From NCBI RefSeq assembly GCF_054482595.1, contig NZ_CM137008.1: a stretch of 64,000 bases of DNA; one strand, given 5' to 3'. Position numbers: made by a program. Positions 44,801 through 50,174 of this stretch are shown in pieces (within the stretch, counting starts at the first letter, position 1; every line of letters starts with the position of its first letter).

Positions 44801-47800
44801 GCTGGCATTCGCATCAAAGGAGAGGAGCATGGAAATAAAACCAGAAGATGAGTTAAGTAATATTGTTTTATTTCCGGTAAAAGAGGATGACCCACGTAAT
44901 CAGGTTAATTTTCTTTATGAGCCATCGGAAAGACCATACTGCCATCACGCTTCTGTCCGGGTTGACGAAAAAGAGCGTCAGGTCCGCTGTAAAATCTGCG
45001 GTGCAGTTGTGGAGCCATTTGACTGGATGCTCTCTGTGGCGAAAAGAGAAACCAGACTGGCAGATGATGTAAAACTATTGCGCCAGGAGGAACAGGAAAG
45101 GCGAAAAAATATAGAAAAGCTAATTCAGATTGAGCGTAATGCGAAAGCACGGATACGCAGGGTGACAAAATCCAGAACTGAATAATTAAATTTAGCACTG
45201 TTAAAAATTTAATCCTTAACCGGAGGGATTTCTGCACCCTCAGAACAGCAGGAGGCCACCCGAAAGGGTGGTAGTGAAATGCGAAAGTTCAAAATAATTA
45301 TTGAAACGGGAATAGCTGGTGGAGATTTTGAGGATGTATTCGAAGTGGACGATGACGCAACACCTGATGAAATTCATGACGAAGCAAAAGAAATTTTCTT
45401 TAACTACTGCAATTACTCATATCACGAAATAAAAGACGAAGAGGAAGAACAAAATGGCTGATTTTGGTTCAACTAAATACAACGTCAGTTTTGAAGAATG
45501 GCATGAACTGTTAATGGACTATGCAGAGTTACGTGGTGGAAGTGCTGCTGATGCTGAAGCCTGGCGTGATGACTACGAAGCAGGAAAAACTCCGGTCGAA
45601 GCATATTGTGATGAGTGGGGCGATGAATGAGCGAGATTAATTATCAGGAAGGGCATGAAACGGCAGGGCAGGCAAAACCAGTTGCATGGCGATATCGCTA
45701 CGTGAAAAAAGGCGTTACGGACTTTCAGGAGAAGATGTGGGTTGGTGACTGGAAATATGTACCGACAAAAGAGGGGTGCAACGACAGGCCGGGCTATGAG
45801 ATTCAGGCCTTATTCACTACCCCGCCAGTCCCTGTGATATCAGAAGGACTGGTTAAAGCCGTGCGCTTTTATGAACAGGTAAAGCGTGAGAATCCACCAG
45901 TCGAAACAGGAGCATGGAAAGATGCTGTTGATTGGGTACTCAAAGAGGCCTGCTGTGCTGTCATTCTGGGTAAAGCCGACAATCCACTAGCATCCAGTAA
46001 TCAGGTTGGCGAATTAACAATGTGGGTTAAACGACTGGTCAGTCAACTGAAAAAAGCTAATCCAGACTGCAAATTACCGGAGATGGCGATGGATTACCTG
46101 AAACGAAATGGACTGATAAGCGTGGAGGATGTTTTACGATGACCTGGCCTGAGGCATTTACAACGGCAGGAATCGCAATGGCTGTGGCGCTGGTGGTGTA
46201 TTCGATTTGCCGCTGGGGATAAAAACGGTTTGCGGGAAAAGGAGAGTTAAGTAGAATTGCAGCGGGTGCTTGAGGCTATCTGTCTCAGGCATGAACACCA
46301 AAAGGCAGATAGAGAAAAGCCCCAGTTAACATTACGCGTCCTGCAAGACGCTTAACATTAATCTGAGGCTCAATCTATGAACGGCAAATCTAGGTTAGCC
46401 TCTTACGTGCCGAAAGGCAAGGAGAAGCAGGCTATGAAGCAGCAAAAGGCGATGTTAATCGCCCTGATCGTCATCTGTTTAACCGTCATTGTGACGGCAC
46501 TGGTAACGAGGAAAGACCTCTGCGAGGTACGAATCCGAACCGGCCAGACGGAGGTCGCTGTCTTCACAGCTTACGAACCTGAGGAGTAAGAGACCTGGCG
46601 GGGGAGAAATCCCTCGCCACCTCTGATGTGTCAGGCATCCTCAACGCACCCGCACTTAACCCGCTTCGGCGTTTTTTCCGTTGATTAACTCTAGTTATTA
46701 GAGAACCGAACTTTTATTGATGGGGCAGGGAGATGAAGAAACTTGTTTTAGTCGCAGGTGTAATGATTGCAACAGTAATGTTGGGAGGGTGTGCAGCAAA
46801 GGTCGATCCAGCGTTGAAAGCAGAAGCAATGAAGCCACTAACATGTAATGATGAAAAGCAATGTGACTTTTATTGGAAACGAGCGCAATTCTGGTTGGCT
46901 AATAATTCCTCATGGAAAATTCAAACGGCGACAGACACGCTAATTTCCACTTATAATCCCTCTCCAAATAGTCCATTCCTCGCTTATCAGGTGAGTAAAA
47001 TGCCAAATGAAGATGGATCCTCAAGAATTTTCATCAAGCCTTTTTGCGATAATATGTTTGGCTGTCAACCAAACCCCTATCAGGCAGTTGTTTCCTTTAA
47101 AAACTTCGTTAAAACAGGGCAGTAGTGTATAGCTTGGACGATAAATTATTAGTGAAAACGCCGTAAACCCTCACCCAATGTGGACTAAGTCTATCAAACA
47201 TGACTGTGATGATTAGTCCGTAGTTGTTGCCTATGAAATCTGGATTGAGTCAGGGTTTAATCCAATAATTATTCTATCGTTCCTTTACAAGTCCGGTATA
47301 TTACTTTCAGTTTGTTTTAGCATACCCGCTTCGGCGGGTTTTGTTTTTTCCTGGCATTCTGGTTTACAATTCGCACGCCAGCCTGAACAACTGGCACCTG
47401 CTGCGCCAGCAGAGACAACCGATGGCGCACGATACCAAATTACACAATTCTGATGATTCTGCCGTCTTTGCCAGCAGGCACGGGCGGCGTTCCCGCACTT
47501 TCAAATCTGACTGGTTCCAGCATGACCCATGTACTGAAGAACAGGCCGAATGGCTAATTCATAACTATCGCAGACGCGGATACGAGATTAAGAAAGCCCT
47601 CAGCCTCGATTATCGTCACTGGATAATCTATGTCAGGCTCCCTTATTCCGAACGCCCACCGCGCCCATCCCGCACATACCAGCAACGGATCTGGAGGTAA
47701 CGTGCGGATATTACTTCGACCTGTTCTGGTACCGGAACTCGGGCTGGTGGTCCTTAGGCCGGGCCGTGAATCCATGCAAGTATTTCATAACCCTCGAGTG

Positions 47801-50174
47801 CTGGTGGAGCCTGAACCGAAAAGCATGCGCGGTCTGCCGTCCGGAGTCGTCCCTGCCGTTCGCCAGCCGCTGGCGGAGGATAAATCATTACTGCCATTTT
47901 TCAGCGATGAGCGGGTGATTCGTGCTGCTGGCGGCGCTGGGGCACTGTCTGACTGGCTGTTGCGTCATGTCAAATCCTGCCAGTGGCCTCATGGTGACTA
48001 TCATCACAGTGAAATCGTCATACATCGTTACGGTACCGGCGCGATGGTGTTGTGCTGGCACTGCGACAACCAGTTGCGTGACCAGACATCCGAATCACTC
48101 GGGCAACTTGCTCATCAAAACCTGTCAGCATGGATGATTGACGTCATACGCCATGCAATGAATGGCACGCAGGAGCGGGAATTGTCGCTGGCTGAATTAT
48201 CCTGGTGGGCGGTCTGCAATCAGGTGGCGGACGCGCTTCCGGAGGCAGTATTACGTCGTTCTCTGGGGTTACGTGCGGAAAAAATCCGCTCCTTGTACCG
48301 CGAAAGCGACATCGTACCGGGAGAGCAGACCGCCACCAGCATACTGAAGCAGCGCACAAAAAATCTTGCGCCGTTGCCTCATGCCCACCAGCAAAACCCG
48401 CCACAGGAAAAGACGGTGGTCAGCATTGCCGTTGATCCGGAGTCACCGGCTCAGTATCTCCAGCGCCAGAAACCACAACAGGAAGAGATGCCTGTATACA
48501 CGCGTTGGGTAAAAACGCAGAAATGCATGACGTGCGGTAATCAGGCAGATGATCCGCATCACATCATTGGTCATGGACTGGGAGGGATGGGAACAAAGGC
48601 TGATGATTTGTTTGTTATTCCGCTGTGCCGTAAATGTCATAACGAACTGCACGCCGGGGTAAAAGATTTTGAAGAAAAACACGGCAGCCAGCTGTTGTTG
48701 CTGATTCGTTTTTTAATGCACGCGAGAAATTCGGGTGTCCTGAAGTGGAAAGCATGAATGACTGAACGCATAGAATTTGTTTTGCCTTACCCGCCGACGG
48801 TGAATACCTACTGGCGACGTCATGGCAATACGTATTTCATCTCGGAAGCCGGAAAGCGTTATCGCCGTGATGTGGCGCTAATTGTTCGCCAGCAGCGGCT
48901 GAAATTAAGCCTGTCCGGAAGGCTGGCGATAAAGATTATTGCAGAGCCACCGGATAAGCGCCGCCGCGACCTGGACAATATCCTGAAGGCACCACTGGAT
49001 GCGCTGACGCATGCCGGACTACTTATAGACGACGAGCAGTTTGATGAAATCAATATTGTGCGCGGTCAGCTCGTTCCTGGTGGGCGGCTGGGGATAAAAA
49101 TCACAGAACTGGAGTGCGCATGAATAACCAGTATTTACAGTTTGTGCGTGAGCAGCTCATTATCGCCACCGCTGATTTGAGTGGGGCAACAAAAGGTCAG
49201 CTTGAAGCCTGGCAAGAGAATGCCATGTTCGATACAGGGCGTTACAGGCGAAAAAAAATCCGGTACCGCGATGAAGTGACTGGAAAAATGATAACGCGGG
49301 ATAATCCACCAATCCCGGGAAAGCAATCGCTGGCGAAGGGGACGTCAATTCCTCTGGTCAGTCCGGTTGAGTTTTCGACATCATCGTGGCGGCGGGCTGT
49401 TCTGTCTCTTGAAGAACATCATAAAGCCTGGTTGTTGTGGTGTTACAGCGGGAGTATTTGTTGGGAATATCAGATCGCGATAACACAGTGGGCGTGGAAT
49501 GAATTTAATACTCAATCCGGTACCAGAAAAATTGCAGGGAAAACGCAGGAACGCCTGAAAAAATTAATCTGGCTGGCGGCGCAGGCAGTAAAAGCAGAAC
49601 TTTTTGGTGGGGAAGGTTATGAATACCAGGAGCTGGCATTACTGGCGGGAGTGACAACTAAAAACTGGTCCAAAACATTTACTCGTCACTGGGTTGCAAT
49701 GAAACACATTTTTCACCGACTGGATAGTGAGGCTTTATTGTTTGTAATGAGAACACGTTCAAAACAAAAGACGGCATTTTCAAAGCAAAGTGTTGCAAAA
49801 GTAGATTGAAAGGCATATATTTCATGCAAATCTGATATTTTGCCGATTTTGTACGTGATGGCAAAAGCAAACAAAACCCGCCCACAAGCGGGTTTTTTGT
49901 GCCACTTATCTCGGATAGGCATGGTGAATGCGCTGGTGGAGGAGATAAGGGTGATTTTTAACCAGGTGATTTTTGAATGCTTGCAACATTGATTTCGTAA
50001 CATTATTATCCTGCGCCCGGCCCTTTAGCTCAGTGGTGAGAGCGAGCGACTCATAATCGCCAGGTCGCTGGTTCAAATCCAGCAAGGGCCACCAACCGCC
50101 ACTAGCTCATCAGGAAAGAGCGTCAACCCTTTAAGTTGAGTGTGCGAGGTTCGAGTCCCCGGTGGCGGTCCAGT

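Follow-up and report, generated by a model that had tools for sequence, protein, structure and literature searches.

The DNA between positions 47422 and 48757 of the window (the whole stretch of 64,000 nucleotides that was analysed) most probably carries two separate, intact genes in the nin/Q region of a lambdoid prophage. The first would encode a 92-aa protein of the phrog_1212 family, and the second would begin at GTG 47702 and encode a 351-aa YdfU-type DUF968 protein (Table 1). We place the probability of this reading as a whole, comprising a gene pair without a frameshift, a start at GTG 47702, translational coupling and an HNH nuclease as the second product, at roughly 0.88, and we hold the gene structure by itself a little more firmly. 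That two intact genes are present follows from the rarity of the ATG at 47630, an invariant junction between the genes, a switch in codon-position bias at this junction, and the positions at which homologues start. A sequence-only reading of the locus had offered a frameshift (in a pseudogene or programmed) and a two-gene arrangement as explanations for its overlapping frames, and it is the latter that proves correct, with both genes intact and separately conserved.

This arrangement is already known to the extent that RefSeq annotates the E. coli locus as this intact gene pair. Both genes are called, 1 nt apart, on identical DNA in E. coli Ecol_881, where the small protein is WP_024175747.1, and the same two-gene annotation appears in the K-12 prophage Qin (a hypothetical gene plus ydfU), in O157 and in five further strains. 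Nucleotide matches to the locus were found in 4558 of 5426 complete E. coli genomes, and the YdfU/DUF968 family is very common in the prophages of this species. The hairpin upstream of the pair lies where homology to most other E. coli prophages ends on the left, with many megablast matches beginning at 47324. Downstream, the ATG of rusA abuts the DUF968 stop codon (TGA-ATG) and the start of Q overlaps the rusA stop codon (ATGA). The small gene, the DUF968 gene, rusA and Q would all be carried on a single delayed-early transcript. An Rfam search of 47126-47421 and of the junction returned no RNA family.

Table 1. Coordinates of the predicted genes, signals and protein domains (aa numbering refers to the 351-aa form)
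Feature	Position	Strand	Description
Terminator-like GC hairpin and T-run	47324..47349	+	From promoter/terminator scan; upstream of the gene pair
Small gene	47422..47700	+	ATG 47422, TAA 47698-47700; 92 aa; phrog_1212
Probably spurious 5' extension of the DUF968 ORF	47630..47701	+	24 codons from a non-conserved ATG; judged non-coding in the DUF968 frame
Putative Shine-Dalgarno GGAGG of the DUF968 gene	47693..47697	+	Inside the final two sense codons of the small gene, TGG AGG
DUF968 / YdfU-family gene	47702..48757	+	GTG start, TGA 48755-48757; 351 aa
rusA (Holliday-junction resolvase family)	48758..49123	+	Pfam RusA E 8e-16; RefSeq annotation; junction sequence
Antiterminator Q gene	49120..49809	+	Pfam Phage_antiter_Q E 2e-91; RefSeq start = 49120; junction sequence
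N-terminal domain of DUF968 protein	aa 1-~160		Conserved C93 and C118-W-H-x-D122; matches no known family
Linker of DUF968 protein	aa ~190-245		Low confidence
C-terminal His-Me finger (HNH) nuclease domain	aa ~255-351; window ~48464-48754

The start codon of the DUF968 gene

In a listing of ORFs on the plus strand, the ORF at 47341..47700 contains a single in-frame ATG, at 47422, whereas the ORF at 47630..48757 spans 375 aa from its first ATG and lies in the +1 frame relative to the former. An overlap of about 70 nt between frames within 47422-48757, as had been reported from the sequence alone, is therefore real for the maximal ORFs (47422-47700 and 47630-48757), which share 71 nt (47630-47700). 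As an overlap of genes it does not stand, because the start that is conserved is GTG 47702, located 1 nt past the stop codon of the small gene, and ATG 47630 is specific to a lineage. From the aligned sequences we judge that the overlap is a start-codon artefact, which arises because the frame of the second gene happens to be open for 24 codons upstream and because an ATG is present at 47630 in this lineage alone. The DUF968 frame is open for just 26 codons upstream of GTG 47702, where it meets a TAA at 47624, and approximately 0.3 of random 24-codon stretches are free of stop codons, such that the open overlap is no more than chance would give.

If the gene nevertheless started at ATG 47630 in this lineage, the product would have 375 aa and the 71-nt gene overlap would be genuine. 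An ATG is a stronger start codon than GTG, and a 375-aa RefSeq record with this start exists (WP_021537288.1, 72 contigs), which indicates that annotators have disagreed on the start. However, no Shine-Dalgarno sequence is present upstream of 47630, and the ATG is found in 9 of 41 distinct homologous DNA sequences and is replaced in the other 32 by CCG, ACG, CTG or CAG, whereas GTG 47702 with its GGAGG is invariant. The 24-codon extension reads as 15 different ‘peptides’ among these 41 sequences, its residues have no counterpart in any homologue, and the current PGAP annotation uses the 351-aa form (216 contigs). We therefore consider a start at 47630 quite improbable. Public databases thus hold 351-aa and 375-aa records for one and the same DNA, and the comparative evidence backs 351 aa.

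Evidence for GTG 47702 comes from the junction itself, from substitution patterns and from homologues. The junction TGGAGG-TAA-C-GTG (TGGAGGTAACGTG), with its 1-nt spacer between the TAA and the GTG, is unchanged in 88 of 88 related loci. Variable columns in 47630-47697 fall 1/5/15 on codon positions 1/2/3 in the frame of the small gene (chi-square p 6e-4), which in the DUF968 frame becomes 5/15/1. From 47702 onwards the substitutions follow the DUF968 frame (6/2/12 over the first 24 codons, 47702-47773, and 27/16/53 overall), and hence the bias changes from one frame to the other exactly at the GTG. Full-length DUF968 homologues with identities as low as 27% begin at the residue encoded by 47702, and more than 20 of them (27-49% identity) open with M-[RK]-x-L-L in register with residue 1 of the 351-aa form. 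Klebsiella and metagenomic relatives carry ATG in place of this GTG. Only 4 nt separate GGAGG from GTG, a short spacing that counts against the assignment.

A start further downstream, at ATG 47774, seems slightly less probable still than one at 47630. It would yield a 327-aa protein and has in its favour an ATG codon and a few GenBank records, including the 327-aa P0376 of the same cluster. Residues 1-24, which it would discard, are conserved in distant DUF968 homologues (a nearly invariant G14 and the motif ELGxVxLKPG), are modelled by AF2 as confident beta strands at residues 3-18, and are encoded by DNA that already displays the third-position bias given above for 47702-47773.

With the gene assigned to GTG 47702, the GGAGG at the end of gene 1 (codons TGG-AGG) would serve as the ribosome-binding site for gene 2, which makes it most likely that translation of the two genes is coupled. 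The layout is that of a coupled pair, with stop and start codons close together, a Shine-Dalgarno sequence within the upstream gene, and conservation in relatives. Other phages also have TGGAGG or TGGGGG, followed by a stop and then a start, ahead of their DUF968, YbcO and NinG genes, and some relatives have a stop/start overlap of 1 nt (TGA/ATG) with TGGAGG upstream. From this layout we consider the small gene and the DUF968 gene to be probably translationally coupled.

Frameshift explanations

Neither form of frameshift accords with the homologues. Alignment of DUF968 relatives, which had been recommended as a means of locating a frame junction, shows N-termini that coincide with 47702 and two genes throughout. 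Fusions of the small protein with DUF968 number zero among sets of 154 and 493 small-protein homologues and among 1987 DUF968 homologues, and the two genes pair independently. Homologues with two separate conserved genes, which had been named in advance as the finding that would overturn a frameshift, were indeed recovered, although the conserved feature is the 1-nt spacer and not the overlap. We also considered long DUF968 proteins (370-807 aa) as potentially informative fusions and rejected them, as their extra sequence is of tail-tip J, tail-fibre, portal or capsid origin and they represent chimeras of prophage deletion or assembly.

It is thus very improbable that the locus is a pseudogene in which an indel divided an ancestral gene, leaving its N-terminal part as the 92-aa ORF and the remainder as the DUF968 ORF. 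This explanation draws on the raw appearance of two overlapping frames, and it would require intact homologues with both parts in one ORF, of which none was found among the relatives of either protein; the long chimeras do not contain the small protein. Each gene is under purifying selection in its own frame, the identical two-gene layout occurs in thousands of genomes and is kept in relatives at 45-49% identity, and the small gene also adjoins other nucleases.

A programmed +1 ribosomal frameshift within 47630-47700, adding a fusion of the small protein and DUF968 to the separate products, is equally improbable: both frames are open across 71 nt, and a rare AGG codon and a stop end the small gene, but the overlap is unconstrained in the DUF968 frame, where changes fall mostly at the second codon position, no conserved slippery motif is present in the sequence, re-pairing in the P site at UGG-AGG-UAA would be poor under established codon-anticodon rules, a conserved Shine-Dalgarno sequence and start codon stand right after the stop, and distant relatives retain the stop/start junction and not the open-overlap sequence. 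Of the features expected for such recoding, namely a conserved shift site, constraint in both frames and a fused product in relatives, none was found. The result is a clean negative, in that a start-codon artefact makes read-level checking and a recoding explanation needless.

The two predicted proteins

The 92-aa protein matches phrog_1212 (E 4e-37 in a PHROG search), and its 493 homologues are all 66-96 aa in length. A conserved 66-aa core (aa 27-92) adopts a beta-alpha-beta-beta fold in the AF2 model (pLDDT >90), whereas the N-terminal 26 aa are poorly constrained and predicted to be disordered. The protein carries a conserved tail, PRPSRxxQxxxW. Substitutions show third-position bias in 47500-47629 (9/8/27) but not in the first 26 codons (9/15/16). 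Given this lack of bias and the predicted disorder, the exact N-terminus of the small protein is less certain.

The gene that immediately follows the small gene is nearly always a His-Me nuclease gene of the nin region (DUF968, YbcO or NinG). In other phages it precedes YbcO, NinG or an exonuclease, and DUF968 is also found without it, as in relative P0140, which has an antirepressor gene upstream instead. The label ‘toxin to Rem’ on one phage record in GenBank is unsupported. It is conceivable, though we think it unlikely, that the phrog_1212 protein acts as a partner dedicated to the His-Me finger nucleases of the nin region, for instance as a stoichiometric regulator, an inhibitor or a targeting subunit. 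Such a partner would remain translationally coupled to whichever nuclease fills the slot, be it DUF968, YbcO, NinG or a Cys-rich phrog_10082 protein. If this were true, phrog_1212 and its nuclease would make up a two-component nuclease cassette that has gone unrecognised in lambdoid phages. The recurrent pairing offers phage recombination biology a modest lead.

The second product is a well-supported member of its family. The long ORF matches Pfam DUF968 (PF06147) over profile positions 1-169 of 171 with 213.3 bits (cut-off 27.8, E 3e-63), and it matches HNHc_6 with 31 bits, above the cut-off, and phrog_96 over its full length (E 6e-165). Residues 1-347 align to residues 1-347 of relative P0125 at 49% identity, and to more than 20 others at identities down to 27%; these full-length alignments revealed no internal stop or change of frame. 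The C-terminus had been described from the sequence as carrying a Cys/His zinc-binding HNH-like motif, and the profile matches bear out its HNH-like character. In the 351-aa numbering the motif reads C275xxC278 ... H286 H287 ... C309xxC312-H313-N314-E315-x-H317, wherein C275 is invariant across the family and position 312 is C or H. C275, C278, C309 and C312 would form a putative structural zinc site of the type CxxC ... CxxC/H, and the elements of a His-Me finger (beta-beta-alpha-metal) core are likewise present (a beta-hairpin and helix, a His that closes strand 1, and helix residues His/Asn as predicted metal ligands).

The N-terminal domain is folded in the AF2 model (pLDDT ~86-96), and it is thus not a disordered tail. 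A comparison with the HNH domain of the same protein by BLASTP recovered LCWHCDNQL~LCRKCHNEL only (E 0.26), and hhalign gave a colinear alignment of 75 columns, but with E 0.04 and a probability of 1.2%. As a weak lead we note that, in enterobacterial DUF968 proteins, the N-terminal domain might have come from duplication of the HNH domain and be a degenerate copy of it that binds zinc.

Comparison with known systems

The closest system is the Qin prophage of K-12, whose YdfU belongs to the same family (349-351 aa) and shares approximately 85% DNA identity with the window over the common part. As in the window, a 92-aa hypothetical gene (WP_012304870.1) precedes ydfU with a 1-nt spacer, and ydfU lies after hokD and before an antiterminator gene. 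Unlike in the window, the antiterminator gene of Qin, ydfT, follows ydfU without an intervening rusA, and the upstream place of the window's gene for a 130-aa lipoprotein-like product is taken by rem.

The description of the protein as ‘YbcO-like’ is accurate at the superfamily level but not at the family level. YbcO (DUF1364, PF07102; PDB 3g27; prophages DLP12/82) is a single domain of 96 aa, unlike the window protein, which yielded no PF07102 match at E <= 0.01 (true YbcO proteins, from phiES15 and mEp237, reach 139-143 bits) and reached 3g27 with a phmmer E of only 0.38. Lambda NinG (Rap; PF05766) is a positional analogue, being a His-Me finger nuclease gene of the nin region located just upstream of Q, yet it is a different family, as the window protein has zero Pfam NinG matches. 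NinG is preceded by a homologue of the small gene in Gifsy-2, in GF-2 and in 60 of 80 IMG/VR loci, whereas in lambda it has NinF upstream, a protein unrelated to phrog_1212.

More informative with regard to function is Gp16 of the S. aureus phage PhiNM1 (HNHc_6, PF16784), a RecA-dependent nickase (PMC12817073). Its HNH domain is homologous to that of the window protein (hhalign probability 94.5%, E 8e-8, 34% identity over 65 columns), and both contain a CxxC, a catalytic His 9 residues further on, and LCRx[HC]HxExH. Gp16 passes the Pfam DUF968 cut-off just as the window protein passes that of HNHc_6, and both genes are early or delayed-early and located near rusA and replication genes. The proteins differ in their N-terminal domains. 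An Orf/NinB-like N-domain has been proposed for Gram-positive DUF968 proteins, among them the phiETA Orf20-type ‘Orf-HNH’ proteins (PMC4118853), and that of Gp16 is of this kind. We rejected such an assignment for the window protein, whose N-terminal 165 aa match lambda NinB with an hhalign probability of 0.2%, and Pfam and PDB sequence searches with the N-domain profile gave zero matches. The window protein therefore shares with RecA-dependent nucleases a similar HNH catalytic domain but not the N-terminal region typical of that family.

The structure closest to the window HNH domain is the RecA-dependent HNH endonuclease Ref of phage P1 (PDB 3plw), although the Foldseek comparison with the PDB was non-significant and Ref went undetected at the sequence level in a phmmer search of the PDB. 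Ref has a basic, disordered N-terminus of 76 aa (PMC4330346), in contrast to the folded 160-aa domain and linker of the window protein. A literature search found no biochemical data on YdfU-type proteins. In view of this, of the non-significant Foldseek result and of N-terminal 160 aa that are unlike the N-termini of Ref and Gp16, dependence on RecA cannot be confidently transferred.

Given that Gp16 and Ref are both RecA-dependent nucleases, kinship of the HNH domain with theirs suggests by analogy a role for the DUF968 protein in recombination or replication. While the phage grows lytically, the protein would nick or cleave recombination or replication intermediates in a metal-dependent manner, its gene taking the genomic place that NinG/Rap has in lambda. 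We regard this predicted metal-dependent nicking or cleavage activity as tentative, with the odds falling a little short of even. The tie to Gp16 and P1 Ref provides a concrete activity hypothesis for the YdfU/DUF968 family.

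Two adjacent genes in a lambdoid nin/Q region

The locus is a lambdoid prophage gene pair, already annotated and very common, that resides in the nin/Q region. The sequence-only reading had described a gene for a DUF968/YbcO-like nuclease whose 5' part is overlapped by an upstream frame, and had proposed either a frameshift (in a pseudogene, or programmed) or a two-gene arrangement. Overlapping frames are indeed listed, wherein one ORF ends at 47700 (its sole in-frame ATG, at 47422, yields 92 aa) and a second, in the +1 frame, runs from ATG 47630 to 48757 (375 aa; 71-nt overlap). 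The DUF968 assignment is likewise borne out by a match to PF06147 (E 3e-63), a weaker match to HNHc_6, and the C-terminal motif C275xxC278 ... H286 H287 ... C309xxC312-H-N-E-x-H317.

Features of the locus (window coordinates unless a locus is named)
Feature	Position	Remarks
sok RNA and hokD	46264-46589	type I toxin-antitoxin locus (hok/sok); Rfam match to sok at 112 bits, plus hokD ORF
Lipoprotein-like gene	between hokD and hairpin	130 aa
Terminator-like hairpin	47324-47349	ACCCGC-TTCG-GCGGGT and T-run; 73 nt upstream of small gene
Small gene	47422-47700 (+)	phrog_1212
DUF968 gene	47702-48757 (+)	YdfU-type
N-terminal domain	47702-48181	aa 1-~160; conserved C93 and C118-W-H-x-D122
Linker	between N- and C-terminal domains	poorly predicted
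C-terminal domain		beta-beta-alpha (AlphaFold2)
rusA	48758-49123	after DUF968 gene
Antiterminator Q gene	49120-49809	after rusA
Four tRNA genes	50019-50325	between Q and holin gene; Ile, Lys, Thr, Gly in identical RefSeq record
Holin and lysozyme genes	downstream of tRNA genes
TGGAGG/TGGGGG dual-use sites	L005 ~2750-2766; L006 ~2750-2766; L093 ~2190-2206; L096 ~2177-2193	other phage or prophage loci

A frameshift is the wrong reading here; the ORF pair represents two genes, each separately kept, and they do not overlap. Homologues of the small protein, a phrog_1212 member, are found at 31-50% identity in phiES15, mEp237, Gifsy-1/2, N15, PY54, GF-2, and Hafnia, Erwinia and Klebsiella phages, where the gene that follows encodes YbcO, NinG, an RNase T-like exonuclease or another product. 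All homologues of the small protein, 154 close ones and 493 detected by profile, measure 66-96 aa, with no nuclease fusion among them. P0140, a database homologue of the DUF968 protein, has an antirepressor gene upstream and lacks the small gene. Because the two genes are independent, with differing neighbours and no fused relative, neither a programmed +1 frameshift nor a split pseudogene is supported; the former also lacks a conserved slippery site and any constraint on the second frame. Longer database proteins labelled DUF968 are chimeric, with the added part derived from tail, portal or capsid sequence. In P0128, P0147, P0148, P0159, P0178, P0179 and P0229, for example, the DUF968 portion consists of its first 150-300 aa and is linked to tail-tip J, tail-fibre, portal or capsid sequence, probably marking deletions in decaying prophages or chimeric assembly rather than true domain fusions. 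Hundreds of independent contigs encode identical proteins, which excludes sequencing error.

The left homology boundary with most other E. coli prophages falls at the hairpin and is a mosaic module junction. As in the window, hok/sok lies upstream in Qin, the K-12 prophage carrying ydfU.

The start of the DUF968 gene

E. coli Ecol_881 carries DNA identical to the window; its RefSeq annotation has a 92-aa hypothetical protein at 47422-47700, followed by a 351-aa DUF968 protein from GTG 47702, one base past the TAA of the small gene. The same layout, with its 1-nt spacer, is annotated in Qin (hypothetical protein and ydfU), O157 and five further strains (80-92% identity), and 4558 of 5426 complete E. 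coli genomes carry a match to the locus. Public protein records for identical DNA give 351 aa (GTG 47702; 216 contigs) or 375 aa (ATG 47630; WP_021537288.1; 72 contigs), and a third start call gives 327 aa. These differing records for 47630-48757 are a start-site annotation inconsistency; the longer ORF of the sequence-only reading is a real annotation, albeit a poorly supported one.

Annotation, start codons, substitution pattern, homologue N-termini and chance expectation all argue against a genuine gene overlap. Among 41 distinct homologous DNA sequences aligned from E. coli genomes and IMG/VR contigs, only nine have ATG 47630, and the others carry CCG, ACG, CTG or CAG. This ATG lacks a Shine-Dalgarno (SD) sequence, and a stop in the DUF968 frame precedes it by two codons. 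The segment TGGAGGTAACGTG, comprising SD, stop, a single C and GTG, is unchanged in 88 of 88 related loci. Of the alignment columns in 47630-47697, 21 are variable, and their split over codon positions 1/2/3 is 1/5/15 in the small-gene frame and 5/15/1 in the DUF968 frame (chi-square p 6e-4). The C-terminus of the small protein is almost constant, and the hypothetical 24-codon extension takes 15 different sequences. From 47702 the third-position bias is that of the DUF968 frame instead (first 24 codons, 6/2/12; up to 47950, 27/16/53). An exhaustive HMMER search recovered 1987 relatives, of which the full-length representatives (320-350 aa, 27-49% identity) begin in register with the 351-aa form, residue 1 against residue 1, and have a common N-terminus, M-[RK]-x-L-L...ELGxVxLKPG. 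Klebsiella phage ST846-OXA48phi9.1 and metagenomic relatives have ATG at the position equivalent to 47702, with a one-base overlap with the small gene's stop. By chance alone, about one third of true starts would be preceded by 24 open codons.

The last sense codons of the small gene, TGG-AGG, double as the SD of the DUF968 gene (within 47690-47704). Further along, the ATG of rusA directly follows the DUF968 stop, and the start codon of Q shares bases with that gene's stop (ATGA, rusA/Q). Because of this chain of close junctions, the layout suggests that the four delayed-early genes downstream of the hairpin (small gene, DUF968, rusA and Q) would be translationally coupled.

The small protein and its gene neighbours

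The small protein invariably ends in Trp-(Arg/Gly), for which the codons are TGGAGG or TGGGGG; these bases are also the SD of the downstream nuclease gene, and therefore part of this apparent conservation may reflect constraint on a translation signal. The first 26 codons (47422-47499) have no counterpart in the 66-aa homologues from other phages. Their substitutions are not biased towards third positions (9/15/16), some strains have an in-frame 6-nt indel at 47454, and the encoded residues are predicted to be disordered.

In lambdoid nin regions, phrog_1212 homologues are located directly 5' of a zinc/His-Me nuclease gene, including in L005, L006, L093, L094, L096 and L099. Scanning IMG/VR with a 66-aa profile yielded 80 phylogenetically redundant loci (L104-L183), in which the next gene encodes NinG (60), YbcO (15) or a Cys-rich phrog_10082 protein (4), or is absent (1); in the similarly redundant E. 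coli-type loci it is DUF968 (88 of 88). The pairing is not obligatory, being absent from lambda, DLP12 and L101, and could stem from a conserved order of modules rather than from function, with a role as partner or regulator of His-Me nucleases conceivable.

In L117, L171, L173 and L177, the phrog_10082 protein occupying the nuclease slot has 141-148 aa, no Pfam match, and the motif CxxC ... NHH ... CxxC ... CPLCxALH. It may constitute another unrecognised HNH-like family.

Structure and possible function of the DUF968 protein

An AlphaFold2 model built from a 33-sequence alignment is confident (pLDDT 87) and has three parts. Pfam and PDB sequence searches gave no match for the N-terminal domain, which is neither NinB-like nor like Ref, the P1 HNH endonuclease. 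Its motif, C93 ... C118-W-H-[HC]-D-N, sits on a predicted beta-hairpin and helix with spacing that resembles the C-terminal HNH motif, and profiles of the two domains align colinearly at a non-significant score (hhalign E 0.04). There is a weak possibility that this domain is a degenerate duplicate of the HNH domain, derived from an ancient duplication.

Our literature search found no published work on YdfU. Jablonska et al. assigned DUF968 to His-Me finger group 7, together with DUF1364/YbcO, and suggested a role in recombination (PMC5714182). The best functional reading is that the protein would be a metal-dependent nuclease, structure- or RecA-directed, acting on recombination or replication intermediates, and its gene would fill the slot held by NinG in lambda. 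Over the zinc and catalytic motifs, the DUF968 family profile aligns with Gp16, the HNH protein of S. aureus phage PhiNM1 (94.5% probability, E 8e-8), and Gp16 likewise scores above the Pfam DUF968 threshold; recent work showed Gp16 to act as a nickase stimulated by RecA and to promote phage replication (PMC12817073).
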